Of a stretch of 64,000 bases of DNA, positions 40,998-64,000 are shown piece by piece (position 1 is the first letter of the stretch; the number at the start of each line of letters is the position of its first letter). The notes beneath the pieces are model-generated. The model worked only from the letters and a program-made list of their open reading frames with translations. It was not told the origin of the DNA and did not search any database. The position numbers and the translations under genes were made by a program. Source of the DNA: Macrostomum lignano (lineage: Eukaryota); contig NIVC01003826.1 of NCBI GenBank assembly GCA_002269645.1, forward strand, positions 10,944 to 74,943. The letters are read 5' to 3'.

Positions 40998-42256
40998 TGC
41001 CGTCTCCCTGCCATGCGATGCGGCTGATTGATAATAACTTCTTGAACAACAGGGCCGGATATTGCTTGACAGGATCCCGGCAACTACAGACTATGCAAAC
41101 GGGAATGTTAATGCTTTAAAAGCAGGCGGCGCGGGGGGGCGGTTAGTATGGGGGAAGAGAGGAGGAGCTAAAGAAACCAAATCTGCTTCCGTCTACAAAT
41201 GATGAGCGGCAGTGAAAACTCCCAGCGCTTTTGGCTCAGGCCAGGCAATCGATGAAGCCCTATTGGCGCGAGAGGAAGGATATTAAGGCGGATGGCTCGC
41301 GGATGCGACCATTCGCTCTTTAACCAATCGGGAAATCTAATAAAAAACAGAAGCGTATTTTCGGCTTCAAACAAGATTGTTATAAGACAGGGAAGCACAG
41401 CATACGATCATATACTTTCTACGTATTATTGCACTAGAATGAATTAGAAAACTACAAATGACTATACTTGTATAGTACATGTACAAACTTTTCTGTGCTA
41501 GCACAAAAAATTTGATTCTAACGCGACAATTAAGAAAGCAAGAAAACTTCACTGATAGATCCTTGAAATTAAATTAGCTTAAAATCTTTTGCTAGGCTTT
41601 CTAGTGAATTTTAAAGCAACGATTTAGGACAGTTTTTGAAAATTTCGAGATGAGGAAAAGTATAAGTTTCCAGACCTGACTCTGAAAATTAGAAGCTTTC
41701 CTCTTTCTGAAGAAAGAAAACAATGGCCATGAGGAGCAATTTGCTTCGGCACACGGCATCTAAAAATACCCAATAGCATGCAATATTCCAAGTCTGCATT
41801 GCCTGTCTTAAGATATATAATTAGCGATGCTGCTCTCTCTTTGCATCCGTAATTTCAGAGTTGAGAAGAAACGGCCTCACCCCTCCAGAAGGCATATTAA
41901 CTGCATGGATTTCACTTCGAAGAATCATTGCATTAAAGCGCCTGCACGCTTCTTGAAGAAAAACTCCGAGCTCAGCTTGGGTTGACGTGTGTACGCCTGA
42001 AATGAGCACACTGCTCATGCATGCCCGTCCCCCCACCCATAGCCATTTACACGCTAAGGCTTGCATTGTTCTACAGTCTTCAAGATATCAACGTGCAGCC
42101 TTTTGGTGTTGGGTGAAAATGAGATGGCAAGAGAGAGAAAGGTTTCGAGTGTGTACAAAATGCAAAATGATGCACACAAAAGACAAGCTATAAGATTCCC
42201 ATACAGTTTTATAATAATGATGCTCTGAAGGCTCTCTCATCTGAACTCCTTAGAAG

Positions 42257-45125: not shown

Positions 45126-45159
45126 GGGAGCTGAGAAGACAAGAGGCGCAAACCTTAAA

Positions 45160-45243
45160 CGGGCCGGATTGCTATTGTGAAAATTTAAAGGACCCGAGGG
45201 CCGGATAGAGAGGCATTGCGGGCCGGATTTTGCCGACTCCTAT
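45160..45243. mobile_element. Probable end of a non-autonomous hAT-like element
   Basis: Three GGGCCGGAT subterminal motifs followed by TTTGCCGACTCCT, similar to ...TTTGCCGACCCCTG hAT-type termini. Confidence 0.4.
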
Positions 45244-45378
45244 TATAAACGATATACGTTTAATAGCTCCTTCTATTTGTTTAGCCAATATTTTTGTTTA
45301 ATCAGTGAGTTACAGCGATCGATTTCACAATAATTTGATGTCGCCTTGATTTCCTAGAAATATTCCTAGAACATTGAG

Positions 45379-48300
45379 AGTAGAAGGCATGAGGGGGCTT
45401 CTGGGACAAAATTTTTCACCTCCTCCATAATCCCATTAAATCCATCCATATTATCCCTGACAGAATCAGAAAAAAAGGGGGGTCGCACCTGCTCCAAAAA
45501 CCTCCTCCATAATCCCATTAAATCCATCCATATTATCCCTGACAGAATCAGAAAAAAAGGGGGTCGCACCTGCTCCAAAAACGTCCTCCATAATCCCATT
45601 AAATCCATCCATATTATCCCTGACAGAATCAGAAAAAAAGGGGGGTCGCACCTGCTCCAAAAACGTCCTCCATAATCCCATTAAATCCATCCATATTATC
45701 CCTGACAGAATCAGAAAAAAAGGGGGGTCGCACCTGCTCCAAAAACGTCCTCCATAATCCCATTAAATCCATCCATATTATCCCTGACAGAATCAGAAAA
45801 AAAGGGGGGTCGCACCTGCTCCAAAAACCTCCTCCATAATCCCATTAAATCCATCCATATTATCCCTGACAGAATCAGAAAAAAAGGGGGTCGCACCTGC
45901 TCCAAAAACGTCCTCCATAATCCCATTAAATCCATCCATATTATCCCTGACAGAATCAGAAAAAAAGGGGGGTCGCACCTGCTCCAAAAACCTCCTCCAT
46001 AATCCCATTAAATCCATCCATATTATCCCTGACAGAATCAGAAAAAAAGGGGGGTCGCACCTGCTCCAAAAACGTCCTCCATAATCCCATTAAATCCATC
46101 CATATTATCCCTGACAGAATCAGAAAAAAAGGGGGTCGCACCTGCTCCAAAAACCTCCTCCATAATCCCATTAAATCCATCCATATTATCCCTGACAGAA
46201 TCAGAAAAAAAGGGGGGTCGCACCTGCTCCAAAAACGTCCTCCATAATCCCATTAAATCCATCCATATTATCCCTGACAGAATCAGAAAAAAAGGGGGGT
46301 CGCACCTGCTCCAAAAACCTCCTCCATAATCCCATTAAATCCATCCATATTATCCCTGACAGAATCAGAAAAAAAGGGGGTCGCACCTGCTCCAAAAACG
46401 TCCTCCATAATCCCATTAAATCCATCCATATTATCCCTGACAGAATCAGAAAAAAAGGGGGGTCGCACCTGCTCCAAAAACGTCCTCCATAATCCCATTA
46501 AATCCATCCATATTATCCCTGACAGAATCAGAAAAAAAGGGGGGTCGCACCTGCTCCAAAAACCTCCTCCATAATCCCATTAAATCCATCCATATTATCC
46601 CTGACAGAATCAGAAAAAAAGGGGGGTCGCACCTGCTCCAAAAACGTCCTCCATAATCCCATTAAATCCATCCATATTATCCCTGACAGAATCAGAAAAA
46701 AAGGGGGGTCGCACCTGCTCCAAAAACCTCCTCCATAATCCCATTAAATCCATCCATATTATCCCTGACAGAATCAGAAAAAAGGGGGTCGCACCTGCTC
46801 CAAAAACGTCCTCCATAATCCCATTAAATCCATCCATATTATCCCTGACAGAATCAGAAAAAAAGGGGGTCGCACCTGCTCCAAAAACCTCCTCCATAAT
46901 CCCATTAAATCCATCCATATTATCCCTGACAGAATCAGAAAAAAAGGGGGGTCGCACCTGCTCCAAAAACCTCCTCCATAATCCCATTAAATCCATCCAT
47001 ATTATCCCTGACAGAATCAGAAAAAAAGGGGGGTCGCACCTGCTCCAAAAACGTCCTCCATAATCCCATTAAATCCATCCATATTATCCCTGACAGAATC
47101 AGAAAAAAAGGGGGGTCGCACCTGCTCCAAAAACCTCCTCCATAATCCCATTAAATCCATCCATATTATCCCTGACAGAATCAGAAAAAAAGGGGGGTCG
47201 CACCTGCTCCAAAAACCTCCTCCATAATCCCATTAAATCCATCCATATTATCCCTGACAGAATCAGAAAAAAAGGGGGTCGCACCTGCTCCAAAAACCTC
47301 CTCCATAATCCCATTAAATCCATCCATATTATCCCTGACAGAATCAGAAAAAAAGGGGGGGGTCGCACCTGCTCCAAAAACGTCCTCCATAATCCCATTA
47401 AATCCATCCATATTATCCCTGACAGAATCAGAAAAAAAGGGGGTCGCACCTGCTCCAAAAACGTCCTCCATAATCCCATTAAATCCATCCATATTATCCC
47501 TGACAGAATCAGAAAAAAAGGGGGTCGCACCTGCTCCAAAAACGTCCTCCATAATCCCATTAAATCCATCCATATTATCCCTGACAGAATCAGAAAAAAA
47601 GGGGGGTCGCACCTGCTCCAAAAACCTCCTCCATAATCCCATTAAATCCATCCATATTATCCCTGACAGAATCAGAAAAAAAGGGGGTCGCACCTGCTCC
47701 AAAAACCTCCTCCATAATCCCATTAAATCCATCCATATTATCCCTGACAGAATCAGAAAAAAAGGGGGTCGCACCTGCTCCAAAAACGTCCTCCATAATC
47801 CCATTAAATCCATCCATATTATCCCTGACAGAATCAGAAAAAAAGGGGGGTCGCACCTGCTCCAAAAACGTCCTCCATAATCCCATTAAATCCATCCATA
47901 TTATCCCTGACAGAATCAGAAAAAAAGGGGGGTCGCACCTGCTCCAAAAACGTCCTCCATAATCCCATTAAATCCATCCATATTATCCCTGACAGAATCA
48001 GAAAAAAAGGGGGTCGCACCTGCTCCAAAAACGTCCTCCATAATCCCATTAAATCCATCCATATTATCCCTGACAGAATCAGAAAAAAAGGGGGTCGCAC
48101 CTGCTCCAAAAACGTCCTCCATAATCCCATTAAATCCATCCATATTATCCCTGACAGAATCAGAAAAAAAGGGGGGTCGCACCTGCTCCAAAAACCTCCT
48201 CCATAATCCCATTAAATCCATCCATATTATCCCTGACAGAATCAGAAAAAAAGGGGGGTCGCACCTGCTCCAAAAACGTCCTCCATAATCCCATTAAATC

Positions 48301-48671
48301 CATCCATATTATCCCTGACAGAATCAGAAAAAAGGGGGGTCGCACCTGCTCCAAAAACGTCCTCCATAATCCCATTAAATCCATCCATATTATCCCTGAC
48401 AGAATCAGAAAAAAAGGGGGTCGCACCTGCTCCAAAAACGTCCTCCATAATCCCATTAAATCCATCCATATTATCCCTGACAGAATCAGAAAAAAAGGGG
48501 GTCGCACCTGCTCCAAAAACGTCCTCCATAATCCCATTAAATCCATCCATATTATCCCTGACAGAATCAGAAAAAAAGGGGGGTCGCACTCGCTCACAAA
48601 ACGTCCTCCATAATTCCATTAAATCCATCCATATTATCCCTGACAGAATCAGAGCATTATCCCTGACAGAA
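45379..48671 (+). repeat. Left TIR (~3.3 kb) made of about 40 copies of an ~82-bp unit
   Basis: Unit CCATAATCCCATTAAATCCATCCATATTATCCCTGACAGAATCAG-A7/8-G5/7-TCGCACCTGCTCCAAAAAC(G/C)TCCT. Confidence 0.97.
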
Positions 48672-48785
48672 AGAAAAGAAACAAAGACTCATTATATTTT
48701 ATTTAAGATTTAAGATTATATTTTATTTTCGTAAAGGTGTTTTATGTTTACTAACAAACGACGACTGCAGAATCTTAAATCGAAA

Positions 48786-49353
48786 CTAATTTATTTGATG
48801 ACTTTCAATCGCTCTCTCCATTGCCACATTTGTTTGCAATTGATCGATCGTCTTGGATGTTATCGCACGACACTCTGGACATGTTATACTATTTTCTGCC
48901 GCATTGTACAAAGTTTGGACACATCTCAAGCAGAACGAATGCGGGCAGTCCAGCTTCCTAGAAGGCGAAAGCCAGTTGTAGCACACTGGGCATTCGCATC
49001 CACGCGGGATGTTTTCCCTCTCGCGGCTCTCCAACTCCTTCTCTTTAATTTGAATCTTTTCCTTTAGGTCTTTAACCACCTTCAAATAGTAATAAATGAA
49101 ACAATGCCATGATTAATGATAAAAAAGTACCCAGAAATACACAGAAAACACAAATTTCGAGTCTTACCTGCACTGATTTAAAAAATTCCGTATTTCTCTG
49201 AAGTGAACTTTCATTCCACACTATATATATAGTCTCTAGCGGACAGGTTTTGAGGTCGCTATCAGCGTGCAACGCGGTTGTCACATTTTGTGCAGTCCGT
49301 AGTTTTGACTTAAGATTTTGCAGTCGCCGTTTATCAGTAGCAGTTGAGGGCAT
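48786..49353 (-). CDS. Spliced C3HC4 RING-finger protein (TRIM-like RING), 159 aa
   Basis: Exon 1 is 49353-49168 (ATG, 62 codons). The intron GTAAGA...TTTGAAG spans 49167-49080. Exon 2 (49079-48786) is in frame and contains CPVC...CPHSFCLRC...CPECR. Confidence 0.8.
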
Positions 49354-49620
49354 ATGTGGGGAGAAGCAGCCCGAGTGTTTCTGTGTTTGCTTAAATATAG
49401 CTAGCCGTAGAAAATTCTAGAAAATTCCAGACTGTACAATCTTGGAGTCAAGCAGGGAAAACAATCGATATAGCTCAGTGTACGATAGAGCATGAGGCGT
49501 GTGAATGTGAGGGGTGAGACTTCTCTATAGACAAAGCATAGGGTGAGGAGGCGAGGAGCATGAAGGAGAAGCATGGTGGAAAGAGAGATTGTAGCCGAAA
49601 CCAGTGTGCTCAAGACTGTA

Positions 49621-49748
49621 CACTTGTGTGGAGAAAAGCGAAGCGAAGGCCAAAAGGCCAGTTTGCGATAAAATTTGGCCTTACTCGAGGCCAAAATCCT
49701 TTGCGTTCTGGCCTTTTGGCCTTCGCTTCTTTTCGCTCCACACAAGTG
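49621..49748. other. 128-bp imperfect palindrome
   Basis: CACTTGTGTGGAGAAAAGCGAAGCGAAGGCCAAAAGGCCAG ... CTGGCCTTTTGGCCTTCGCTTCTTTTCGCTCCACACAAGTG, with an inner TTTGGCC/GGCCAAA hairpin. Confidence 0.9.
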
Positions 49749-49757
49749 GAGAGAGAA

Positions 49758-50207
49758 TCATTCTGCTCTCTCAACCCCCAGCTCTTTCAACAGTCTTCCT
49801 AGTTCTTGACTTGGCGCGTGCAATGCAAAACCCACCCCACCTTCGCCTTGAACCCCCAACCCCAGTTTTGTCTTACTAAAAATAACAGCTTTAACTAGCT
49901 TCCGAGCGATCGACTCACGAAATCCGCTTGAAGCCCCTATATTGTCTAGTCTCTTAAGCATTTCTTTGTCCCAACGATTCTTCTCCTCAGGAAAATCTCT
50001 ATATTTAACGTCATGCCACATGCAGACAGAGTCTAGCTCGTTCACAGGCTCATGCCCAGGATTTGGGTTGTTGTTTCCATCCAGCTGTATTTCAAGAGGA
50101 TTCAAAGGCCCGCAATATTTATAGCCGGGAAGTGTCCAGCCTTTGTTTGGATGAGGAAGCTTTTCTATCAGTCCATGTGAATCTATTTTACCACCAGAGC
50201 GCTGCAT
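49758..50207 (-). CDS. Parvovirus VP1u-type phospholipase A2 domain protein, 149 aa
   Basis: ATG at 50207; LPGYKYCGP Ca-binding loop and NELDSVCMWHDVKY catalytic HD motif. Confidence 0.88.
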   Translation of the reverse strand: MQRSGGKIDSHGLIEKLPHPNKGWTLPGYKYCGPLNPLEIQLDGNNNPNPGHEPVNELDSVCMWHDVKYRDFPEEKNRWDKEMLKRLDNIGASSGFRESIARKLVKAVIFSKTKLGLGVQGEGGVGFALHAPSQELGRLLKELGVERAE

Positions 50208-50237
50208 TATTTTATTTAAAATTTTCTTTTTAAATAA

Positions 50238-51275
50238 ATGACAGATCAGAAACTTAAAAAACTCTACTACAGCGACAAAGGATTCTTTGTAGGCAAAAAT
50301 GCTGTTAGTAAACTCATGGAGCTGAGTAAAGAGCCAAAAGCTACAGTAGAAAAATGGCTCTCTAAGCAGGCTGTCTTTCAAGTCTATTTCCCACCAGTAA
50401 AATTTGAAAGGCCCCATTTCAGTATTTATAAACCTAATGAAGCGCACCAAGCAGATCTTTTGTTTCTCCCCAACGACTCAGGCTACAAGTATGCTCTTAC
50501 AATTATTGACATTGCTTCCAGATATAAGGAAGCTCGCCCACTCAAGACGAAGAAGTCAGAGGTTGTTGCCAGCGCACTGCAAGATATTTATAAAAACTCT
50601 CCGCTCACATACCCCCAAATCTTTATGACCGACCCGGGTAAGGAATTCATGGGTGTAGTGAAATCCCTTATGGAAAAGAAAAACACAGAGATTCGCTATG
50701 GCAGAACAAACTTGCACAGAGACCAGGCTTTTGTGGAAAGATTCAATCTAACTCTAGCCAAGAGACTATTCACTAAGCAGACAGCGCAAGAACTCAAACT
50801 GAGTGCGGGGCAGTACTATACCAAGTGGACAGAAAGACTCCCCACTGTTATAGAGCAACTGAACAATGAAGTCACACGCATGACTGGATTGAAACCATCC
50901 CATGCAATTAAACAAGACACTGTCGAACTTAAGGCATCTCATAGAACAGACAACAACACGACAACCCCACACAACACGCACAACACAAAACACACCTCGA
51001 ACTACCCTAAGCTTCCAGGAGTTGAATCACCATACATACTGACAAACTCTGAGTTTCTACGCTTTTTATATCTACCTGGAGAGCTAGAGAAAGACACCAA
51101 AAGAAGAGCTACAGATCCATACTTCAGCCTTGATGTGCATAAAATAGACAGACATTTTACCTCCGACTCCGGTGACTATTACTTTTTATCTCAAGCCTTT
51201 AACCCTAAATCCCCCACGCGGTCATTCACTAGAGCTGAACTCCTAGTGATACCAGCTGACACAGAAATTAATTAA
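50238..51275 (+). CDS. int: Polinton retroviral-like (rve) integrase, 345 aa
   Basis: QADLLFL, TIIDIASRY, TDPGKEF, VERFNLTL; intact ORF. Confidence 0.95.
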   Translation: MTDQKLKKLYYSDKGFFVGKNAVSKLMELSKEPKATVEKWLSKQAVFQVYFPPVKFERPHFSIYKPNEAHQADLLFLPNDSGYKYALTIIDIASRYKEARPLKTKKSEVVASALQDIYKNSPLTYPQIFMTDPGKEFMGVVKSLMEKKNTEIRYGRTNLHRDQAFVERFNLTLAKRLFTKQTAQELKLSAGQYYTKWTERLPTVIEQLNNEVTRMTGLKPSHAIKQDTVELKASHRTDNNTTTPHNTHNTKHTSNYPKLPGVESPYILTNSEFLRFLYLPGELEKDTKRRATDPYFSLDVHKIDRHFTSDSGDYYFLSQAFNPKSPTRSFTRAELLVIPADTEIN

Positions 51276-51291
51276 AATATTAAAATAAAAA

Positions 51292-51747
51292 ATGACAAAG
51301 ATTGAAACTAGAACCATCAATAAACTCAATAAAATCATTGAATCAAAGAAACCAGGTATTATATCAATTAAAGGTGTCAAAGTAAAAATCGATCCCACGC
51401 AGCAAATAGTTCAGTGTAATGAACAAAGACACAGCATCACAGATGAAAAGTCAGGAGGAATCCTACCATTAGCAGCTCTTATTCCGATCATTGCAGGCGC
51501 TGTAAGTGCCGCAGGTGGTGTAGCTGGAGGTGTAGCAACTGCTGTTAAAGCTGGGAATGATAGAGCCCACCAGCTGGAATTGCAAAAGATTGCAAGAGAC
51601 AAAGGTATAACAATTAAGGCAGGAGATGGTTGCCCTGATTTTGATGATTGTGATGATTGTGAGCATGAAAATTCTGTAAGCAAGTCTGACATTGTCAAAG
51701 CCATCATGACACTGCACAATGCTGGGTTTACAATAATGCGGATGTGA
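51292..51747 (+). CDS. Small protein with an adenovirus pX-like hydrophobic Gly/Ala segment, 151 aa
   Basis: SGGILPLAALIPIIAGAVSAAGGVAGGVA, similar to adenoviral GGFLPALIPIIAAAIGA; basic N-terminus. Confidence 0.7.
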   Translation: MTKIETRTINKLNKIIESKKPGIISIKGVKVKIDPTQQIVQCNEQRHSITDEKSGGILPLAALIPIIAGAVSAAGGVAGGVATAVKAGNDRAHQLELQKIARDKGITIKAGDGCPDFDDCDDCEHENSVSKSDIVKAIMTLHNAGFTIMRM

Positions 51748-51869
51748 TGAGGTTTAAAACCCCACTTTATCCAGCTTCATAAACCTAATACTACTTATAG
51801 GATGTAGAAACAGTTCAACTTTTCTATCAGGGTGGTCACCCTCAAAATTTTTTTATATTTTCGAGAAAA

Positions 51870-54800
51870 ATGCCAAAAGCTAATCCAGCAAGAGATTTAG
51901 TCAACAAATATTTTTCAAAAGGCGTCTCATTTCAAGACAAAAGTAATTCACTAAGAGAAGCATGCAAACAAAAGTTCAACACCGACCCTGGTCACCTGGG
52001 AAGCTATGAAAAACAGTTGGAAATCATCAATCAATTAGAATCAAACCAGTATGCGCCTATAAAAAATTCTGCAAAGGAACACCAAGAGAGGAGTCGCAAC
52101 TTAGTTAACAAATATGAAACTCTCACTGGTGAAAAAGCAAAGTACCCACAAAATAAGCAGGAACAAGAGAAATTAGAGCAATTAATCCATTTAAAAGAGT
52201 CGGAGCTTGCCACTGAAGAGATTAATTTTGCACAGACGAAGTTTACAGAACATTACATAGAGTACACAATCCCAATTAACGGCACCAACGGTACCACCGC
52301 AAATATCTACGACTATAAAGACAGCATCCAATCAGTTGTTGATCACACACTCAAAACACGCAAGACCTTTAAACTACAGATATCATTCAAGATTGCGTTT
52401 TATATGCCTGCAAAACCCACTGAGCATCTCGAGTATTACATGACAACAAAGGCAAAGCCATTCACCCCAACAGACACACTGGATCCTTTCCTTCAAGATG
52501 TCAATAAGAAAATTGAAGCGTTTACATCCAGAGGTTCCGGATGGGTCGTGGGAGGGATTCAAAGAGCGACTGTCAGGGTCATGAAATATGACCCACTTAA
52601 AGCCTCCTCTTATATAGAGCTCCCGCATAAGCTAGCCGGTAAAAAAGCTTGCATAAATGTTAAAAATAAAGACAATTGCTGTGCTCTATGGGCAGTTCTT
52701 TCTGCACTTTTTAGTGTCCCTCACCACCCCGAAAGAACCTCAAATTATCAAAATTATTTTAACTACTATCTCATTGAATGCGAAAAGAAGGGAATCAGGT
52801 TTGACAAAGGAGGCTTGGCATCTCTCAATCCCAAAGCTAGAAGAAGTGTTTAATAACAAAATTAGAATCACAGTCTTTGAGTGGAGTGAGAAAACTGAGA
52901 AAGTTCAACCGGTCAGATGTAGCAAAGACGTTTTAGATCCGAGGGGAAAAGGCGGACTGAAGTGGATCTTCTAGTGATTGGTAATTTACTAGAGGAGGCT
53001 CACTATGTTTGGATTAAAGATCTTTCAAGACTCATACACAAGCAGTTGAATAATCATCACGAGGCTGTTGCCATCTGCCGCTTGTGCCTTAAGCATTACA
53101 GTGGACCTGAACGCTTTGAAAAACTAGCAGAGCATGAATTATCATGCGAGGATCACCCGACAAACTGCTCTCTTCCTTCAGCTGAAGAGAAGTATCTCCG
53201 GTTTAAGAACTATCACAAGATGGAGAAGCTCCCATTTGTTGTATATGCTGATTTCGAATGCTCAATCGTGCCAGAAACTCAAAAACAAACTCAAACTCAA
53301 AAACATGTCCCCAATTCAGTAGCATATGCTTTATTATACAAAAGACTTGTTGAGTATAATTATTTCTTTGGAGAGCAGTGTGTGGAGCAGTTTATTGCCA
53401 GAATGTTAGAGTTGCAAAAATTGATTAGCACCCTTCAACCTGTTCCAATAATGATGACTGAGGAGGATGAAAGCAATTTCCTATCAGCAACTCATTGCCA
53501 CATCTGCAGGAAACATTTAACTTGCACTAATATTAAAAACCCCACCGTTAGGGACCACTGCCACTATACTGGGAAATTTAGAGGTGCAGCGCATAACACC
53601 TGTAATCTAAAGCTAAAATCGAACATTCATGATCTAACGATATTTTGTCACAACGCAAAGAACTATGACATGCATTTAATAGTTGAAAAAATCGGCATGA
53701 TTCCAGACATACACCTTGATTGCATCGCAGAGAACAAGGAGAAGTTTAAGTGTGTTGATATTAAACAGGATAATTCGGGTAAAGGTAAAATAAGACTGAA
53801 GGATTCATATCAATTTCTAGCTGCCAGTCTAGACGAACTAAGCAAGAATCTAAAAGATGAACAATGTACATATACAAAGATGTTTGCAAGTAAAATTAAC
53901 AACACTGATGAATCATTTAAACTCCTGAGAACCAAAGGCTTCTACCCCTATGAAAATATTACTGGGTATCACGTATTTGAAGAAGGTTTACCACCACAGG
54001 AGAAGTTCTTTTCAAAGCTAACAGACTCTGGAATCTCTGACAAAGACTATGAGCACGCGAAGCATGTCTATAATTACTTTAATTGTCAAAACTTCTTCCA
54101 GTATCACCTGCTTTACCTCTACACAGATGTGTTTCTGCTGGCCGATGTGTTTGAAACCTTCAGATCACCTGGTACACAGCATACGGCCTCGATCCAGCAC
54201 ATTATGTGTCTCTGCCTGCCACTAGCTGGGAATCTTTGCTTAAAATGAAATGGGATCAAGATCCAGATTGGTACATTGAACTTCTTACAGACATTGACAT
54301 GTACAATTTTGTCGAATCGTCAAAGCGAGGGGGAATCTCAATTTGCACCCATAGATATGCAAAAGCAAACAATCCCTACATTGAATCTTACAATAAGGAG
54401 CAGCCCTCAAACTACATTACTTACTTGGACGCTAATAATCTCTACGGGTGGGCGATGAGTCAAGATCTTCCAGTTAGAGATTTTCGATGGTTACCCTCAT
54501 CAGAATTCAAACGGGACTTTTCATTGGCTGCCATTTATGAGGTTGATGTTTACATTCCACCAGAGCTTCACGACTATTTCTCTGACTTTCCACCCTTCCC
54601 AGAGAACATCAAGTGCCCGAAAATAATCGAAACTCCCAATGATAATAATGGAACTTGGCGCTTGTCAGGAACAGAAAAAGAACATACAGAGAAACTAACA
54701 CAGAATCTAAACAACAAGACACGTTACAAAATCCATTACAAACTGCTTCAGTATTTTATCTCACTTGGTTGCAGGGTCACCAAAGTTCACCGGGCTCTTA

Positions 54801-55680
54801 CATTTACAGAGGAAGCGTGGATGAAACCCTACATTGATAAGAACACCCAGTTTAGGACCAAAGCAACCAACGACTTTGACAAGAACCTCTTTAAGTTGGC
54901 CAACAACTCTGTCTATGGCAAGACTCTTGAGAATGAGCGGAAAAGAACAAACCTGAAACTTGTTACCTCATCAGAGCCTGATGTTATTCAGGCAAATTGT
55001 CAAAGCCAACATTCAAAGAACTCCATATCTTTAATAGCTACTTAGGTGTGATCATATTTTACAAAACCAAGGTGACGCTGCGCAAGCCGATCTATACAGG
55101 TGTCACTGTTCTCGACGAATCAAAACGTCTGATGTACCAGTTCTTCTATGGCATGAAGCAGCAGTACAAGGATAAAATGAAACTCTTGTACACTGACACA
55201 GACAGTTTTATTATGGACATTCAAACAGAAGACATTTATCAGGACATGCTGCAGCAAAAAGATTTGTTTGACTTGTCTGAGTATGATGAATCTTTCAGGA
55301 CACAGAATGGCGATCAAGTGTTTGACGCCACTAACAAGAAAGTGATTGGGAAAATGAAGGACGAGATTGCTGGTGACATAATCACTGAATTCATTGGGTT
55401 GAGAGCAAAGTCCTATTTTATAAAATGTGAGTCGTCAGACCCAATCAAAAAATCAAAGGGAATTCCGAAACGTGTAGTTAGGAAGGAAATTAATGAAGCT
55501 GAATACAGAGACGCCTTGAATTGCAACAAAAAGACATCACATGAGTTCTCAAAGCTACAATCCAAAAACCATATTATTCACACAATTCGCAAAAGAAGAT
55601 TGGACTGTCAGGTGCAGATAACAAGAGATTCATTTTTGATGACAATATCAACAGTCTACCGTTCGGCATTGGAGGTTAGG
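51870..55680 (+). pseudogene. polB: Protein-primed DNA polymerase B, split by about 5 single-base frameshifts
   Basis: YADFE, FCHNAKNYD, YLYTDVFLLADVF, YGLDPAHY (hidden frame), YLDANNLYG, KLANNSVYGK, YTDTDS, KKSKGI, and C-terminal KIGLSGADNKRFIFDD...LPFG (hidden frame). Breaks at about 52820, 52960, 54165, 54990 and 55590. Confidence 0.95.
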
Positions 55681-55738
55681 TTTAGGAGGTGGATATTGGG
55701 TTTAGGTTTGAGAGAAAGTTTAATAAACCTCATAAAAA

Positions 55739-56140
55739 ATGACAACAAATAACTTTCTTGAAGATTTGGCTAACGAACTGGAAATCCCAAACTTTAGAGG
55801 AATATTTATGAGGGACACTCTGCCTGATTTTCCTCTAAGAAAAGAATGCGGCATCATGAACTTTGACACCACCGATAAGCCAGGATCTCATTGGGTTTGC
55901 TGGGTGATTGATCCCAATCGCAAGCACAAGTGTTATTACTTCGATAGCTATGGGACGGCAGTACCAGAAGAGCTAAGAAATTATATGAAGGGAAAAAATA
56001 ATAAAAAAATTTATCGCTCAGACTTTATTCTCCAAGGTCTTAGCAGTGATATTTGCGGTGAGCTGTGCATGACTGTTTTGTATGCAATGACCAAAACACG
56101 AAAGACCTACAAGGAAATTATTCTTGGCTGTGTTTCATAG
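55739..56140 (+). CDS. Adenain-like cysteine (maturation) protease, 133 aa
   Basis: GSHWVCW, YYFDSYG, QGLSSDICGELC (His/Asp/Gln/Cys catalytic set). Confidence 0.93.
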   Translation: MTTNNFLEDLANELEIPNFRGIFMRDTLPDFPLRKECGIMNFDTTDKPGSHWVCWVIDPNRKHKCYYFDSYGTAVPEELRNYMKGKNNKKIYRSDFILQGLSSDICGELCMTVLYAMTKTRKTYKEIILGCVS

Positions 56141-56813
56141 GGTTCATTGTGCATTCCTCGTCGTCCTTCTTGCGAATTTCTTGCCGAATTTTTCGCCGAC
56201 TTTCTTTCCGCATAATGTTGAAAACTTTCTCGAGTTCATTTCTCAGCTGACTCATGTCATCAGTACCGACCATGTTCAAGTTCATTCGAATTGATTGTTC
56301 ATAAAGATCCTGAATGGTTTTGAACTCATCCTCTGAAATGAACTTATCGTCTATTGCTCTTGAAATGTACCCTATGATTGAAGTGTGCACCCCTTTCTCT
56401 TTTACTTGCTTCTCCTGTAGCTGCTTTAGTTTTTTTCGCCTGTTTCGCGCTAATGCTCCAGTAATTGCTGAAATAAGTCCACATGCAGCACCCACAGAGC
56501 CGAGCGGGATTGCGATTGGGGCTGTGATGACTGGCAACACTGAGACAGCTGCAGCAGATCCAGATAGAACAGACACAGATCCTAGAATCATATTGCTGTA
56601 GTCGAAAAATTTACAGTGGTTGTCATAGCGCTTAATTTTCTTTGTGTTGTGGAAAATATTTTTTTCAAGATCATCGCGCATTTTTTGAATCTCCACTAGT
56701 CGAAACTGTTGAGAGTTACAAGTAATGACGGGGTAGAGTTTTTGTTGCTCATATTGGGGTGCACTAGGTGCTGTGGGAGCATTCGGATCATAAAGAGAAT
56801 TTTGAGCATCCAT
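56118..56813 (-). CDS. Polinton membrane-associated protein with a hydrophobic hairpin, 231 aa
   Basis: Long hydrophobic stretch (MILGSVSVL...ITGALA), then RNRRKK and ISRAIDDKFISEDEF; intact ORF with an AAAAAATG start. Confidence 0.75.
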   Translation of the reverse strand: MDAQNSLYDPNAPTAPSAPQYEQQKLYPVITCNSQQFRLVEIQKMRDDLEKNIFHNTKKIKRYDNHCKFFDYSNMILGSVSVLSGSAAAVSVLPVITAPIAIPLGSVGAACGLISAITGALARNRRKKLKQLQEKQVKEKGVHTSIIGYISRAIDDKFISEDEFKTIQDLYEQSIRMNLNMVGTDDMSQLRNELEKVFNIMRKESRRKIRQEIRKKDDEECTMNPMKHSQE

Positions 56814-56921
56814 TTTTTAGGGAATTTTTTTAAAAAAATCGGCAACTAGTTGGTGGTGGCTAGATTTGTTTTACGGTTGATTGCTTCGTCTGCAGTGACG
56901 GCAACAGGTCTCTGAATCTGC

Positions 56922-57653
56922 CTATTCATTATCTGTGAGCTCCATTCTACGCATGATCTCAAACAAGTCGGTTGGATCACTTGTTTCCCTTGTGGTCTGT
57001 GGTGCCTCTTCAGCGTCAATGTTTTTGAGATTATGCAAGCGTTCAAGACGACCGATTCTTCTCACCGATTTCTGCCATTCGGTAAAAACTAAATCTACAA
57101 AGACTTTAATTGCAGTAATTCTTACTTTGATTCGATCATGCAACGCTGTTGACTGAGTCATGAACTCTTCTAAATTCCTCACTTTACCTGTGTTGGTTGC
57201 GACGTTTTCTTTAATTCTATCATGCAACGCTGTTGACTGGTTCATGAACTCTTCTAAATTATTCACTTTAGCTGTGTTTGTGAAAACTCCTCCTTCAAGA
57301 ATACGCATCCGTCTATCAGTGGAATTTCCCAGAAGATTAACTGTCGATCTTAAGCTGTTGATTTGCGAGACTGCCGAAGTTATTTCTGACCTAAGTTCAT
57401 TAGTTGCGTTTAACAACGGCACATAAAGCTTATCACTTTCAAACTTCTGCCTGGCTACTTTAAGCCTGAGATCTTCCATGTTTATTTGCAACTGGTGCAT
57501 GGAGCGCTCTAGGGTTTTCAGTCTGTTTTTATTCAGTTTGATCTCTGGGATCTTTTCGTCGCTGTTGATATATCGCCTGTCAAGGATGGATATCTGAGCT
57601 GATGTAAGAGCGCTGTTGCCAGAAATGGATTCACCTGCAAAGTTTATCGACAT
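56922..57653 (-). CDS. Coiled-coil protein with a 26-aa internal duplication (candidate fibre/spike), 243 aa
   Basis: TNT(A/G)KV(N/R)NLEEFM(N/T)QSTALHDRIK occurs twice; heptad pattern. Confidence 0.7.
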   Translation of the reverse strand: MSINFAGESISGNSALTSAQISILDRRYINSDEKIPEIKLNKNRLKTLERSMHQLQINMEDLRLKVARQKFESDKLYVPLLNATNELRSEITSAVSQINSLRSTVNLLGNSTDRRMRILEGGVFTNTAKVNNLEEFMNQSTALHDRIKENVATNTGKVRNLEEFMTQSTALHDRIKVRITAIKVFVDLVFTEWQKSVRRIGRLERLHNLKNIDAEEAPQTTRETSDPTDLFEIMRRMELTDNE

Positions 57654-57669
57654 CTTTTAATAGCAAATT

Positions 57670-58470
57670 TTAAATTACAGTTCTTTTTTCTTTGCTGATA
57701 ATCACAAACTGGTAAGGCTGATTCCACTTGTCATAGCAAAGATTAACGAATTCCTCTTGTGAAATCTTTCTGCTTGAGTTTTTTGTTGGATTTATGAAAT
57801 AGGCAGGCGCAATGACCTCATTGTAAAATCTTTTTAACCTGTCCTGTGGAATGGTTGGAAACAGGAGAATCAGATTGCAGTTCCCACGAATTGTTTTGTT
57901 CGGGAGCTCGAACCAGTTCTGTGCAATGTAAATTACATTACAATTGTTATGTCGCCCTCTTGTAAAATAGTTTTCTATCTGCTTCTGTGGGCCTGTCATA
58001 CAATCATCAAAGACGATCAAATGCTTTCTCCCCTTTTCTAGCTCATCTGGTTGGGGTAGAAGTTTGGTCTTTGGATCAGCCTGTGGATCTCCATAGGTGA
58101 ACACTTTAATGTTCTGCCATTTTTCATTGTCTTTGAGGTGCTTTGCATATTCGGCAGCTACAATTTCAGGGTTACTGGGAAGGCTCATTTGGTTATTAAA
58201 ACATGCAATAATGTCCTCTTTGTTCAGCTTGTTTTGAAGCCCTGCAATCAGCATTCTATACTCATCTTGATACAGTGTGGGAGAGTAGATGTGCAGAGTG
58301 TCATAGTCGATAAAGCCAGGTCTAAGAAGCATGTTAAAGACTCTGAATGTTTTACCTGAACCTGATGAACCAACAACAATGCATCTGAAGTGACTCGGGA
58401 TTGACTCATGATGAGAAAACTTAATCTGATTACGTGTCCAGTGAGGATTGAAGTCGTTTGAAAAGTCCAT
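57670..58470 (-). CDS. A32/FtsK-like DNA packaging ATPase, 266 aa
   Basis: Walker A IVVGSSGSGKT, Walker B LIVFDD, and RGRHNNCNVIYIAQ. Confidence 0.95.
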   Translation of the reverse strand: MDFSNDFNPHWTRNQIKFSHHESIPSHFRCIVVGSSGSGKTFRVFNMLLRPGFIDYDTLHIYSPTLYQDEYRMLIAGLQNKLNKEDIIACFNNQMSLPSNPEIVAAEYAKHLKDNEKWQNIKVFTYGDPQADPKTKLLPQPDELEKGRKHLIVFDDCMTGPQKQIENYFTRGRHNNCNVIYIAQNWFELPNKTIRGNCNLILLFPTIPQDRLKRFYNEVIAPAYFINPTKNSSRKISQEEFVNLCYDKWNQPYQFVIISKEKRTVI

Positions 58471-58508
58471 TTTTTCTATGATGAAAAAAATTTAAATAAT
58501 AAATAATG

Positions 58509-58677
58509 TAGATGTGTCATTTCGGGACTTAGATGTGTCATTTTGGGACTTAGATGTGTCATTTTGGGACTTGGATGTGTTATTTTGGGACTTAGATGTG
58601 TCATTTTGGGACTTAGATGTGTCATTTTGGGACTTAAATGTGTCATTTTGGTACTTAATTGTGTCATTTTGGGACTA
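58509..58677. repeat. 21-bp tandem repeat, about 8 copies, immediately upstream of the ATPase
   Basis: Unit GATGTGTCATTTTGGGACTTA. Confidence 0.95.
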
Positions 58678-58718
58678 GTCTTGTACCTTTACATTTCTTG
58701 TACCCTCGGAAAGTACCT

Positions 58719-59117
58719 TTAGTCAAATTTGAAACCACTTCCTTTTTTAATGCTAGCTCTCATCTTCTCATAGACTGCAGGGTCCACACTGTCTGGATTT
58801 GGGGCCAGCGGGGCCAGCGGGGCCAGCGGGGCCAGTGGAGGTTGAATCTCTTGTTTAGGTGTTACAGTATCCTTTATCTTTTTGGCTGCTGTGGCTACAC
58901 TGCCAGCCGCTTCGGCAACGTTCTTGATGTTCTCTTTGTTCTCTCCAATGACCTTAAAAATCTTAGCCCCCTGAGCGATCAAATCAGCAAGGCCATTCCC
59001 AGAGCGTTCTTTTCTTGGATAGTGGCCTGCAGGGAAAAGTCCAGATCCGCGTTTAATGAGATTAAGTTCCTCTTTGTCATAGTATTTGTCAATGTCTTTT
59101 TCGAAAATAATTGGCAT
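58719..59117 (-). CDS. Small Lys-rich protein with GxG motifs (candidate virion core precursor), 132 aa
   Basis: KRGSGL, RSGNGL, KKGSGF and an (LAP)4 repeat. Confidence 0.7.
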   Translation of the reverse strand: MPIIFEKDIDKYYDKEELNLIKRGSGLFPAGHYPRKERSGNGLADLIAQGAKIFKVIGENKENIKNVAEAAGSVATAAKKIKDTVTPKQEIQPPLAPLAPLAPLAPNPDSVDPAVYEKMRASIKKGSGFKFD

Positions 59118-59119
59118 CT

Positions 59120-60324
59120 TTTTAAATAGAAATTATTTTTTGTTAAACCGCGAAAGCAAAAGTTCTCTTGCTCTTTTATCGATATATTTCTCTCAAGCAT
59201 TTTGTCCAGGATGTTGACAAATTCTTTTCTATTCTCGTCTTTCATTCCGGTCTTTGCCGCTCCTAGAAGAACGCTAACCGCTTGTAGATTTCAGCATCCT
59301 TTTCCAGTTGAGGGCGGTTGGTCTTGAGGTTGTGGAGTTGGTTGGGCTTGTGGCTGCTGGGGAGGTGATGCAAAAGACTGCTCACTTTCAGAGACGGAAC
59401 TGTCATGTGGTGCCTGTCTTTGTTGAGGTGTGAAAACTCTTTGCTTGATTCTGTTCATTCGATCTGGAGAGTGTTGTTCTAAGTGTTGCCAATCTGTTGG
59501 GTTTTGTTTCTTATATTCAGCTACTTGAGTCGGATCTGCATTTTCCAGTTGCCTGAGTACTTCTGTGAAATGTTGCTGCTGCTGTGGTTGTGGTTGTTGT
59601 TGCTGTTGTTGTTGTTGTTCTAGATATTTTATGACTTCCGCCTGATCTGGCAAATCGAACCATTGTTTAAAGTGATTGTACTTTTTGAATCTAGTCAGGT
59701 TGACACCGTTATCATACATAAGTCTCAGGACTTCTGGGCCTTTAGTATTGCTATATCTCTAGCAAGAGCAAAAGTCACTAGATCTCTATAGTTCTTTAGC
59801 TGTTTGTCCGAGATTCTCTCTTGGTTCTTGGTCATAAAAGTCAGTAAGGTTTCTGTGAAAGGAATGCTCTTAGTTTCCGAGCCTTTGACAACAGAAATAT
59901 GTTTCTTATTTATGTCGATATAATATTCCACTGGTTCATTATAAATGTTTCTTCTCCACATACTTATTCCAAATACATATTTCCCATCATGTTCGACACG
60001 CTCTACTGGTCCAAAAATGTTATCTGTCACTTTTAGTTGTGATTGATGTGGTTGTGGTTGTTGTGGTTGCGGCTGTATCTGTGGTGCTTCTGGAATTTTG
60101 CCCAAAACCTTTTGCACTTGGGTTTCCTGTATGTCGTCGATAGTTTCTTTGACCTGATCAATATTTTTCTTAGCTTCTCCATACCCGGGTTTATGAAACT
60201 CTGTGGCTGCTTGGACAAACTCATTGTAGGATTGTTGCTCCTTATTTATTAGCCGGTAACTCGTTTCTCTGCTTGTGCTAGCTTCTCCAATTCAGATATC
60301 TGCTGTGTACTTTTTCCGCTTCAT
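59120..60324 (-). pseudogene. Frameshift-fragmented conserved Polinton protein with Gln/Pro-rich inserts
   Basis: ATG at 60324. Fragments 60117-59725, 59719-59291 and about 59270-59130 read as one protein (TDNIFG...FGIS; LKNYRDLV...RFKKY; VLLGAAKTG...EFVNILDKML). The 3' end is approximate. Confidence 0.55.
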
Positions 60325-60354
60325 TTCTTATTTTATTTTATTTTTAGTTAAAAA

Positions 60355-61636
60355 ATGAACGACCCACTGACACCAGTTTTCTACAAAATTAACAAGCCTA
60401 TTTTGAGTGATGATAGCACAATCAAAGCGACACAGTTAAGAGTTCCGAGTCACGAGAATCAGAATGAAACTAATTTGGTCCAGGTCAAACACTGACATTT
60501 ACATACAATGGATGTTCGTCTCTGGTTAGTGTGCACAGTCTTAAGAGCGGCTTCCATATGACATTTCAATTCAAGACAAAGGTGGTGCGGATGCGGCTCG
60601 TGCTAACGTTGACAAGCATGATGCGGATGTGGCTCTGATCAGTAACTTTTGGGCGTACATGTTCAAGGAGTTTAGTGTATCGAATGGGAGCACTGAGTTG
60701 GAGCGAATCGCCAACTTTGGAATTGTCTATGACGCTCATTGTTTGATCGAGAATCCTGATTTTATTCAGTTGGGAAGTGGTGCGGGTTTTATTGCAGAGA
60801 AAAAGAAGGAGATATCAATGACAGTGGCTATAAAAAAGGAAGAAGAGATACAACTATGCATTGCAAGGTGCTGATGATGCTGCTAAAAACCCGCTGTATC
60901 GGTCTGTTGATGTATTTGTACCATTGAGATTCATGAGTGGATTCTGTAATACATTTAATCGACTGACTAGTAACTTTAGCTACACATTTAGGATGACTAG
61001 AGATGATCGCAGTAGAGTGTTGTGGACTGGGGCGGACCACACAAGGATGGAGGTGAAGCTAACCGGAATCGAGCTGTATTTGGAAGTCATTGAGCCAAAG
61101 ACTGCACTAAAAGCAGACTATCTTAAGGCAATAGAGAAGGACATTGATGTTGCATACACAGCCTACATGTGTCGAGATGAGCGAAACGAAACTAGAACAA
61201 ACATCTGCATTAAAGAGGGATCATGCAGCAATCCAAGGTATATTATTATTAACATGAGAAACCCAAATAGCATTATACGCTACATGCATGGAGACGTGCG
61301 GTCCATTCAGCATGAAATCAGTGATAATCTTTACCCTGCACTGCCACAAAATGGAGATTTCAGTCAGAACAAGATTAGCAAATTTTATAGCGAGTTGGTC
61401 GACTTGGCTGTGAAAGAGAACAATGGAATTGCTATCACTGCTCTTCAATATGGAACTCTATATCCAATGTTTGGCGCTGATGTGTCTGCCAGACAAATGC
61501 CTACTGATAACAGCCCTGTGAATATCGTGACAACATTGAGAGGACTGTCGCAACACCCGTGGACTTGTACATTATCTATGCATTTGAGAGGAAGGTGAAG
61601 CTTAACATGATCAACAATTCATCCAGTAAAGTTTAA
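60355..61636 (+). pseudogene. Major capsid protein (double jelly-roll), frameshifted
   Basis: ATG at 60355 (ILSDDSTIK). Polinton MCP-like segments ALISNFWAYMF..NGSTELE, VPLRFMSGFC, NPRYIII, YPALPQNGDF, FGADVSARQ. Probable stop at 61636. Confidence 0.85.
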
Positions 61637-61659
61637 ATATTTTTTTTGTGGGTGAAAAA

Positions 61660-62520
61660 ATGGAAGCTATAGCCGAAAGACTAAACAATATTATTTCGCA
61701 CTCCAAGGAGAGCATTCCTATTACAATAACTGGGCGGATTAATGACTCAAACGGGATATTTGTTCAAAAATTAGAGCAGGCGATTAGCCTGGATCCAGGT
61801 GCTAATTACCATGTCTATCTTAACGACTTCACTGGTTGGTCAAACGTTCCCAATGTGACGGCAGCAAATAATAAGTTTTATTACAAATGGAAAGGTGCAG
61901 CAGCAGAACCTGTGGTATTCCTGTGAGCACGCAAAGTGTGGATACCTACAATTACTTTCTAGAAACGTCTTTACTAAAAGAGGCCATTTTGAGACACCTG
62001 ATATGAGTAAGCCAGAGAAGAAACTGTTCCCTGTTAAACTAACCTATGATCTCACTGTAATGAGAGTGGTCATGCAAGTTACAAAGATGCGGAGGTTGAG
62101 TTTAAAGATGACACTTGGTATAGGGAATTGGGATTCGTGAAGAAAGTTTATAAGGCAGAATCCACAGCGCGGACTGTCACTCAAGCATCGGGGGCCGTTA
62201 GCATGGCCCGGGAAAGTGTACGCGGTTTGTTCTTAGCACCCAATATAGCAGACATTGTAAAGGGTTTGAATATTCTAATCAGAACTAATCTCAGTCTTGA
62301 TTGGGTATTTAAGGGAAAGCGAACTAATATTTTGTACAACATCTCCAACTCTGTAGCTGGAGGACAGATGGTGGTAGAGAAACCAAATCCAGTGAAAAGA
62401 GTTGTATTGAGTAATAAGGAGATTCACGAGATTGTGCTTCAGTTTGAGACTGAAGATGGGATGGGCGTTGATTTTAATGGGGAAGAGTTTGTATTGACGT
62501 TAATCATTGAGAGAATGTGA
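61660..62520 (+). pseudogene. Minor capsid/penton protein (single jelly-roll), frameshifted
   Basis: ISLDP..YHVYLNDF..SNVPNV...NNKFYY; TNILYNI...GGQMVVEKP; GVDFNGEEFVLTLII. Confidence 0.82.
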
Positions 62521-62524
62521 GAAA

Positions 62525-62764
62525 TCACAATTGCCTAATGATTTCTGCAAAGTTATAGTAGCTGTCATAATCTTTTACATAGGTTACTCCATACTTATGA
62601 AACCAATGTCTTTGGAGAGCTTGATTAATATTAGGGACATTGATTTGAACGTCGGGCCAATATTTTCTCATGTATTCGCTGCATTCAAGTTTGCATCGGT
62701 ACTTACTCTTGTAATTAGGCTCGTGCGTTTTGTAATAAGAACCTGGAGAGACAACTGGAAACAT
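62525..62764 (-). CDS. Small Tyr-rich hypothetical protein
   Basis: Open frame from ATG at about 62764 (MFPVVSPGSYYKTH...), convergent with the penton gene. Confidence 0.4.
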   Translation of the reverse strand: MFPVVSPGSYYKTHEPNYKSKYRCKLECSEYMRKYWPDVQINVPNINQALQRHWFHKYGVTYVKDYDSYYNFAEIIRQL

Positions 62765-62970
62765 TTTTATTGAAAATTTAATTTTTTTCAAAGGGTAAGG
62801 ACCCTGCGCTGATGATTTAAAGTCTTAGGGATCTGGTTTCACGTTGCGGATTGAATGTGGGGAGAAGAATGCAGATTATTTTCTGATTGTTTCGAAGATG
62901 CTATGGGTGGATGTCAGTGGATTATGTCAGTGTCAGTGAGCATAACAGGTGTCCTACTGTTATGCTCTGA

Positions 62971-63975
62971 TTCTGTCAGGGATAATGCTCTGATTCTGTC
63001 AGGGATAATATGGATGGATTTAATGGAATTATGGAGGACGTTTTGTGAGCGAGTGCGACCCCCTTTTTTTCTGATTCTGTCAGGGATAATATGGATGGAT
63101 TTAATGGGATTATGGAGGACGTTTTTGGAGCAGGTGCGACCCCCTTTTTTTCTGATTCTGTCAGGGATAATATGGATGGATTTAATGGGATTATGGAGGA
63201 CGTTTTTGGAGCAGGTGCGCGACCCCCTTTTTTTCTGATTCTGTCAGGGATAATATGGATGGATTTAATGGGATTATGGAGGAGGTTTTGGAGCAGGTGC
63301 GACCCCCCTTTTTTTCTGATTCTGTCAGGGATAATATGGATGGATTTAATGGGATTATGGAGGACGTTTTTGGAGCAGGTGCGACCCCCTTTTTTTCTGA
63401 TTTGTCAGGGATAATATGGATGGATTTAATGGGATTATGGAGGAGGTTTTTGGAGCAGGTGCGACCCCTTTTTTTTCTGATTCTGTCAGGGATAATATAT
63501 GGATGGATTTAATGGGATTATGGAGGAGGTTTTTGGAGCAGGTGCGACCCCCCTTTTTTTCTGATTCTGTCAGGGATAAATGGATGGATTTAATGGGATT
63601 ATGGAGGACGTTTTTGGAGGCAGCGTGCGACCCCCCTTTTTTTTCTGATTCTGTCAGGGATAATATGGATGGATTTAATGGGATTATGGAGGAGGTTTTT
63701 GGAGCAGGTGCGACCCCCCTTTTTTTCTGATTCTGTCAGGGATAATATGGATGGATTTAATGGGATTATGGAGGACGTTTTTGGAGCAGGTGCGACCCCC
63801 CTTTTTTTCTGATTCTGTCAGGGATAATATGGATGGATTTAATGGATTATGGAGGACGTTTTTGGAGCAGGTGCGACCCCCTTTTTTCTGATTCTGTCAG
63901 GGATAATATGGATGGATTTAATGGATTATGGAGGAGGTGAAAAATTTTGTCCAGAAGCCCGCCATGCCTTCTACT
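62971..63975 (-). repeat. Right TIR (~1.0 kb) with about 12 copies of the 82-bp unit
   Basis: Reverse complement of the left TIR, including the same variant innermost unit (…GCACTCGCTCACAAAACG…AATTCC). Confidence 0.96.
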
Positions 63976-64000
63976 ATTGAGTCGTTTTTCGGGAAGATCG

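Follow-up and report, generated by a model that had tools for sequence, protein, structure and literature searches.

Background

Adintoviruses (Eupolintoviridae) have, in the available text of PMC8502044, a common gene set of a protein-primed DNA polymerase (pPolB), an rve integrase, an adenain, an FtsK/A32 ATPase, a hexon-like major capsid protein (MCP), a putative penton, a PLA2 and a pX-like gene, together with inverted terminal repeats. In nematode Mavericks, a cargo slot with intron-bearing genes lies between the left terminal inverted repeat (TIR) and the integrase (10.1101/2022.07.12.499685, available part), and the accessible part of 10.1101/2025.04.19.649669 mentions Orthopolintovirales-related (Polinton-type) insertions in Rhabditophora/flatworm genomes. 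It has long been an open question whether particles are formed by animal Polintons and what role these elements play once integrated. Herein we analyse a stretch of 64,000 nucleotides from the flatworm Macrostomum lignano (contig NIVC01003826.1 of assembly GCA_002269645.1, positions 10,944 to 74,943), hereafter the window, which contains one Polinton at 45379-63975. With good confidence we regard it as an insertion that is very young and still polymorphic, made by an expanding, adintovirus-like Polinton of class Polintoviricetes; its left arm bears an exchangeable cargo, in this copy a spliced RING gene that appears to be strongly transcribed.

A recent insertion of an abundant element

The element is real, young and abundant. 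It is flanked by an exact 6-bp target site duplication (TSD), ATTGAG at 45373-45378 and 63976-63981, and its termini, 5'-AGTAGAAGGCATG...CATGCCTTCTACT-3', are reverse complements of each other, just as the first-pass annotation of this DNA had read them. In two other contigs of the same assembly, C1374 and C463, the site is empty and holds a single ATTGAG; the flanks of the empty site are 99.8% and 99.1% identical to the window in C1374 and 93-95% identical in C463. Because a near-identical version of the locus (C1374) lacks the element, the insertion is very recent, and the recent integration proposed by that annotation is borne out by the empty-site alleles in both contigs, which moreover answer for the authenticity of the junctions in place of junction-spanning reads.

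The copy count that the annotation had suggested gives the same picture of abundance. The 22-nt terminus occurs exactly 346 times in the assembly, with 0 occurrences of the reversed control, and therefore about 170 or more elements are present. The ATPase matches are 99-100% identical in 40 of the 40 scored (291 candidates), and the penton matches, of which 130 were scored among 600 candidates under a ranking that favours copies with open frames, are all at least 92% identical with open frames of at least 288 amino acids (aa). Seventeen copies have both ends on one contig, and 11 of them carry exact 6-bp TSDs, all different.

Gene content and classification

The features of the element are given below in window coordinates, with the strand or, where it has no meaning, a dot.

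45379-63975: whole Polinton, 18.6 kb (many siblings are about 15-16.5 kb)
45373..45378, +: left copy of the TSD (6 bp)
63976..63981, +: right copy of the TSD
45379..48671, +: left TIR of 3.3 kb, a short unique end and 82-bp units (array 45421-48653)
62970..63975, -: right TIR with about 12 82-bp units (array 62989-63935)
48749..48788, -: 3' arm of an inverted repeat over the RING stop codon, pairing with 49300-49339
48786..49079, -: RING cargo exon 2, coiled coil and C3HC4 RING, TRIM/RNF8-like (Pfam; PDB sequence matches)
49080..49167, -: RING gene intron, 88 bp, GT-AG, phase 0
49168..49353, -: RING cargo exon 1, 62 codons, containing the 5' stem arm 49300-49339
49621..49748, dot: imperfect 128-bp palindrome between the RING promoter and the PLA2 end, 98/128 self-complementary
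49758..50207, -: PLA2, parvovirus-type (PF08398, E 1.5e-13)
50238..51275, +: retrovirus-like integrase, INT, rve (PF00665, E 2e-8)
51292..51747, +: pX-like small virion protein (Adeno_PX PF05829, E 5e-7)
51870..55735, end approximate, +: protein-primed PolB with EndoVII-type insertion (DNA_pol_B_2, Endonuclease_7), in five overlapping pieces
55739..56140, +: adenain-type maturation protease, PRO (Peptidase_C5 PF00770, E 1e-4)
56118..56813, -: TM-like protein with a central hydrophobic segment; counterpart in the second Polinton family 20-21% identical
56922..57653, -: coiled-coil protein, length varying among copies
57670..58470, -: A32-like packaging ATPase (Pox_A32 PF04665, E 4e-6)
58509..58676, dot: 21-bp intergenic tandem repeat, 8 copies
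58719..59117, -: putative core protein, without Pfam match, with what we take to be GxG motifs
59130..60324, ends approximate, -: Q/P-rich gene, fragmented in this copy (several siblings have about 400 codons)
60355..61630, end approximate, +: MCP of double-jelly-roll type, fragmented in this copy
61660..62520, +: putative penton/minor capsid protein, three pieces, named from position, size and a family-2 counterpart 24% identical
62525..62764, -: 79-aa open reading frame (ORF), within the TIR at both ends in several siblings

The 14 genes in four strand blocks described in the first-pass annotation are all found. Its labels stand on Pfam matches for RING, PLA2, INT (rve), pX (Adeno_PX), PolB (DNA_pol_B_2 and Endonuclease_7), PRO (Peptidase_C5) and ATPase (Pox_A32), so that the Polinton core set it had named is borne out, with the MCP match below the cut-off; the labels of penton, core, TM, coiled-coil and Q-rich proteins come from position and motif. 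The latter names are putative, because these proteins and the small ORFs gave no informative family match in Pfam, PHROG and NCBIfam (partly searched with sibling frames), the penton giving none at all in the three. The likeness of PLA2 and pX to adintovirus genes also holds, and by the same token the accompanying claim of an unusual accessory cargo was overstated, both being standard adintovirus genes in the available text of PMC8502044. What the annotation missed is the intron of the RING gene, the 82-bp tandem unit in the TIRs and the interchangeability of the cargo slot. A 63-aa ORF in the 21-bp repeat was rejected as a gene, being probably spurious. The probable start of PLA2 is at 50207, although its frame is open up to an ATG at 50417 and overlaps INT there. 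The TM-like gene is also found in a second Polinton family of the same genome and has look-alikes in Atlas.

As for classification, the protein-primed PolB, the rve integrase, the 6-bp TSD, TIRs with AG...CT ends, a length within 13-25 kb, the ATPase and the adenain are all Polinton features. The MCP matches PF21738 below the curated cut-off (E 3e-5 with a sibling's open frame and 4e-4 with the window piece), and we count it as a Polinton MCP on this match together with the presence of PF21738 in all 10 MCP homologues examined; no PDB sequence match to the MCP was seen. For PolB, 5,808 homologues with E<=1e-30 were found among 8,000 candidates scored. The 120 best share 39-47% identity in the region searched, and those of them that are named come from corals, an anemone, a sea slug, a crinoid and a snake. 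PF03175 matches both the window PolB piece and a sibling's open 1,295-codon frame, the latter with a weak score (59 bits). The polymerase domain is at most 48% identical to the sampled relatives. A quick tree was made of 53 rows, namely 51 of the 120 listed matches (11 named and the 40 best unnamed) and 2 Polintons from the same genome; the element has a long branch in it, and its place there is unsure for that reason. Judged by this divergence, the lineage looks undescribed, as the annotation had thought probable, Repbase families lying outside the comparison. The nearest named protein is the PolB of the Corynactis coral adintovirus, an unclassified eupolintovirus, which is 35% identical over 1,218 columns. 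It aligns also with a region of Cys and His motifs that might be an N-terminal OTU domain; no OTU domain was matched in Pfam. The Corynactis PolB is listed in the Alpha-PolB panel of Fig. S2 (PMC8502044, as far as available).

An interchangeable cargo slot and mosaic cores

The truly variable cargo of the family is the left-arm slot, that is, the segment flanked by the left TIR and PLA2. Among 23 copies drawn from the 40 best ATPase matches (3 further contigs have no PLA2 anchor), nine mutually non-alignable cassette types occur, in 3, 7, 4, 2, 3, 1, 1, 1 and 1 copies respectively, two pairs of copies being the same insertion seen twice. Six of the types encode helical proteins of 170-260 aa from no known family, whose kinship is partly shown (D-X with E 3e-22, F-G with E 5e-5), protein B being weakly related (leave-one-out E 0.05) and the kinship of C unsupported. 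A DUF3102-like identity considered for these proteins found no support from Pfam, PHROGs, NCBIfam or Atlas. One cassette protein of a sibling copy is 99.5% identical to a UniRef entry that bears the name of Macrostomum lignano.

Moreover the cores of the copies are mosaics of one another. For example, the window element and the copy in C142, both TSD-matched, have identical pentons, different cassettes and 1.8% divergence in INT, and between the copies in C2787 and C3027 the INT difference is 0.3% and the penton difference 5.7%.

The RING cassette and its expression

The window cassette is probably a Polinton gene of long residence. It is spliced, has the features of a Pol II gene and encodes a small putative E3 ubiquitin ligase with a coiled coil and a RING. 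A TATA-like box lies 46 nt upstream of exon 1 and AATAAA signals lie downstream; the best PDB sequence matches of the RING domain are TRIM69, TRIM32, TRIM31, HOIL-1 and RNF8, and in the protein of about 160 aa no substrate-binding domain was recognised. The cassette has 11 full-length matches at 90-100%.

Splicing and depth were read from contigs of several sequencing runs on 48700-58480, the RNA or DNA status of each run being guessed by software. In the RNA-like run X15, loose contig ends at 49081 and 49166 bear letters of the other exon, and contigs of X15 and of X9, a run from another study, end at 49081; these ends define the 88-bp GT-AG intron. In the DNA-like run X5 the contig continues into it. 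The contig depth, summed over copies, was 29,790 and 16,690 in the two RING bins for X15 and 1,691 and 284 for X9, against 35-230 and 0-34 respectively in the other 28 bins, and in the DNA-like runs X1 and X5 the pattern was reversed, with the RING bins lowest. Thus the RING cargo appears to be strongly transcribed, with the adjoining viral genes from PLA2 to ATPase near background.

A second RING lineage occupies the same slot in other copies, with an exon-2 protein 46-52% identical and the same intron and splice sites; between the two lineages synonymous sites are saturated and pN is 0.34. All 8 of the more distant RING loci inspected adjoin Polinton-type genes, and on this ground a recent capture of the gene from the host was rejected as the main reading. 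In the window lineage an inverted repeat of 40 nt brings the beginning of the coding sequence together with the stop codon and the 3' untranslated region (z -3.9, 20 shuffles); a stem over the stop codon is likewise present in the second lineage, where its arms are of unrelated sequence (z -7.4). A decayed RING copy folds no better than its shuffles. Decayed or interrupted RING copies lie in C293, C1178, C2014, C963 and C1541 (L132-L136) beside Polinton fragments and AGTAGTAG-type ends, and are possibly small non-autonomous derivatives.

Several observations weigh against the picture of a young and intact element with an expressed cargo. Six of the 17 two-ended copies have no exact TSD (1 partial, 5 mismatched), and for some mismatched copies the flanks pair across contigs (C66/C1707, C1664/C3027), which points to chimeric contigs or ectopic recombination; since some flanks match in this way, part of the mosaicism may be chimeric assembly. 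Four genes of the window copy are frame-broken at the level of the assembled contig. The MCP fold match is under the cut-off and the penton label is putative. The excess of RING depth is a strong hint and not a measurement, because contig depth cannot strictly rank genes and the RNA status of the runs is guessed; MCP and penton lie outside 48700-58480 and hence outside the comparison, and the RNA contigs bear a sibling allele at 48796, so that the signal can be assigned to the family but not specifically to the window copy. No RNA run was listed for the ATPase-MCP stretch, which we weigh neither for nor against. Finally, about 12 weaker RING matches (35-51%), outside the 8 inspected loci, could include a host donor.

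Proposed life style and the role of the RING gene

The mechanism that we propose would be as follows. The rve integrase, as expected from Polinton biology, would insert the element and create the 6-bp TSD, and a linear copy would be replicated by the protein-primed PolB from its TIR ends. Panhandle pairing would equalise the two TIRs, so that new insertions would start with equal numbers of 82-bp units, and most long unequal arrays, such as the 40/12 of the window, would have arisen once the element was inserted. The slot would be swapped when copies that replicate together recombine, with the TIR and the PLA2/INT genes as anchors. In integrated copies the RING gene would be transcribed, with the core genes beside it near background.

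Judged from the gene set, we moderately favour that the family is packaged into particles. A tentative but serious alternative is that it spreads only inside cells, as a self-synthesising transposon that has retained capsid genes and forms no infectious particles. In favour of this, particles, free DNA and capsid transcripts are absent from the evidence here; the core from PLA2 to ATPase is near background in the RNA-like runs; and Maverick particles had not been observed according to the available part of PMC8097293. However, MCP, ATPase, protease and penton are open in many copies, and the MCP has relatives at 71-78% identity in unnamed environmental assemblies. The other MCP relatives are unnamed proteins at 41-45% and otherwise mostly 21-35%, with no named one among them, and no related MCP loci were found in IMG/VR or JGI metagenome contigs. 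A further reading, which we hold to be somewhat unlikely, is a prophage-like latency: the exchangeable arm cassette would be highly expressed from integrated copies while the core stays quiet, the RING mRNA would be closed by an end-to-end stem that arose twice, the cassettes would be shuffled by recombination like the morons of temperate phages, and germline insertions would be ongoing.

What the RING ligase does is a question of its own. It could act in the integrated phase and counter a host silencing or defence protein, a suggestion that we hold to be nearly evenly balanced. It is unlikely, by comparison, that the RING cargo is a mere passenger, a host gene captured long ago with a strong promoter and no benefit to the element, the stem being a by-product of template switching at the arm. 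This would agree with the fact that most copies carry other cassettes and no RING (11 full-length matches against about 170 elements), which makes the gene dispensable, with the decayed copies in C293 and C1178, and with the stem, in which no doubly compensated pair was seen. Against a passenger stand the frame, intron and RING motif kept in two lineages with saturated synonymous sites, and the stem that each lineage has over its stop codon with unrelated arms.

Frame breaks in the window copy

The first-pass annotation had called the element complete, which does not hold as assembled: PolB is in 5 overlapping pieces, the penton in 3, and MCP and the Q-rich gene in about 3 each. Nevertheless we consider with high confidence that most of these breaks are artefacts, probably of long-read sequencing or assembly. 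The contig C5003 contains the same insertion, with the same TSD and the same right flank, and over 13.6 kb the two versions are set apart by 48 indel events, of which 45 involve a single base, and by 18 substitutions; in C5003 the penton frame is open. Moreover sibling copies are broken at places that differ from copy to copy, contigs from short reads show single-base indels against the window within PolB (these contigs mix all copies, so that the disagreement is family-level), and substitutions against the nearest independent copy are 0.0-0.3%. All of this argues against the quite improbable reading that the copy is truly dead, with its frameshifts being real mutations and the element having been moved in trans, for which the four broken genes themselves and the real insertions of other elements in several siblings can be cited. 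Among such insertions are, with labels given by eye, a LINE-like element in INT (L037:812-6509) and a DIRS-like element in PolB (L040:1-5049), and one copy has a 2.2-kb insert in its coiled-coil gene (L024:3591-5808).

Terminal repeats with 82-bp arrays

Most of both TIRs is made up of the 82-bp tandem unit, in 39.6 copies at the left and 11.6 at the right. Most termini examined have 1-7 units, and among 10 other TSD-matched copies the two ends agree in count in 8 and are one unit apart in 2. The few long arrays differ in length from end to end: the window has 40/12 (C5003 at least 29/12), an insertion divided between C67 and C1830 has 18/34, and arrays of 10 and 18 units were seen at single ends. 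Adenovirus-type replication is the basis of the panhandle idea, and the equal ends would be consistent with panhandle-based copying of linear genomes, as the long unequal arrays are with instability after insertion. It is very improbable indeed that the diversity of cassettes and these long unequal arrays were produced artificially, by assembly of a high-copy repeat out of noisy long reads, for although some contigs appear chimeric and indel errors are frequent, the cassettes are non-homologous sequences of 1-2 kb with open frames of their own that recur in 2-7 copies, different types are found in TSD-matched copies, and a 12-unit right and an at least 29-unit left array are present also in C5003.

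The many ORFs inside the arrays were rejected as real genes. In several siblings both TIRs contain the 79-aa ORF (62525-62764), but the window has it only at the right end, and therefore the TIR boundary itself moves. In another contig (C543, L086:3160 to L087:5643) a right TIR unit of a partial copy directly abuts some 12 kb of TTAGGG repeat, a junction that is possibly either telomere healing at an element end or a misjoin.

A second Polinton family and other features of the window

Polintons in this genome are often nested in each other. A second family, with AGTAGTAG ends and PolB pieces 26-48% identical, is inserted with a 6-bp duplication in the TM gene of a RING-bearing copy, at the site corresponding to window 56557-56562 (contigs C67, L101-L102; C1830, L097-L098; C5112, L094-L096). 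It carries both pPolB and a Prim-Pol/PriCT-2/D5 primase-helicase, as well as a PLA2-integrase frame, F5/8-domain proteins and an Eco47II-like nuclease, and its primase has about 30 near-full-length matches at 91-100%. A swapped primase replication module in the window family was accordingly rejected, the primase belonging to the nested family. In addition, one window-family copy is inserted in the cargo slot of another (C2787; L023, L025), and a window-family terminus lies inside family 2 (C1391, L110-L111).

Outside the element, about 100 bp of the left flank (45141-45241), about 140 bp from the insertion point, belong to a dispersed repeat with 352 candidates. A Gypsy-type long terminal repeat (LTR) retrotransposon, labelled by eye, occupies about 23700-33300; it has frames for gag and pol, and its two ends bear matching ORFs derived from the LTRs. 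Pieces that we take to resemble a ZIP zinc transporter, a DnaJ, an EF-hand calcium sensor and a protein kinase are found at 14525-16440, 21137-22219, 40506-41090 and 42254-43171, and these host gene pieces lie among many intronic minisatellites.

Comparison with known systems

Adintoviruses and nematode Mavericks already offer precedents for PLA2, the pX-like gene and an intron-bearing cargo slot in the left arm, and a Polinton with capsid genes is ordinary by itself. In adintoviruses, according to the available text of PMC8502044, PLA2 and pX are fused as PLA2X, with the pX-like domain at the C-terminus, whereas in the window they are separate genes on opposite strands, the PLA2 having no Adeno_PX match and the pX match falling on its own gene. 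For want of this fusion the element is not filed under Alphadintovirus. The window TIRs contain a variable number tandem repeat, unlike those of the adintoviruses compared, and the main text of that paper, in its available part, mentions neither a flatworm nor a RING cargo.

With vertebrate Mavericks, as described in the accessible part of PMC8097293, the element shares AGT//ACT-type ends, a 6-bp TSD, a length of 13-25 kb and accessory regions flanking the core. The vertebrate elements, however, consist of two converging modules whose genes have no introns, with TIR lengths of 46-1,447 bp and no more than 38 intact copies, against four strand blocks, a cargo intron, a left TIR of 3.3 kb and at least 130 open-penton copies in the window family.

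Nematode Mavericks, in the part of 10.1101/2022.07.12.499685 available, likewise have a variable region between left TIR and integrase that carries intron-bearing cargo, so that the slot is of a known kind; what is new here is its content and the turnover of that content within one genome. Their cargo consists of WASP proteases and KRMA kinases, in contrast to a RING ligase or weakly related helical proteins of 170-260 aa, and its high GC content has no parallel in the window (41-44% against 38-42% in the core, 1-kb windows). No fusogen was recognised in the window element. The same part of that paper reports that no transcription of the fusogen or other Maverick genes was detected, whereas window-type cargo appears to be transcribed from intact-type elements. 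For the Rhabditophora insertions no family-level description was seen in the available part of 10.1101/2025.04.19.649669, and they may overlap the window family.

In the open-licence literature searched, neither the window family nor a Polinton with RING cargo was found described, nor were tandem arrays in the TIRs of such elements. The points of interest are the expressed, exchangeable RING cargo and a tractable host: with about 170 or more near-identical and partly polymorphic copies in a flatworm that is probably a laboratory animal, the question of particles or latency becomes directly observable. If true, a strongly transcribed, spliced cargo would mean that Polintons are active while integrated, and would open a first way to study how they deal with host defence. 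The cargo slot shows the turnover of cargo within a single genome, and the 82-bp unit shows how Polintons can seed minisatellite arrays.

Small RING E3 ligases are known from other viruses, for example ICP0 of herpesviruses, IE2, PE38 and CG30 of baculoviruses and p28 of poxviruses. Like viral RING E3s and the cellular TRIM and RNF8 proteins, the window protein has a C3HC4 RING preceded by a coiled coil; unlike them, it is a protein of about 160 aa encoded by a spliced gene that forms an exchangeable cargo of a Polinton.

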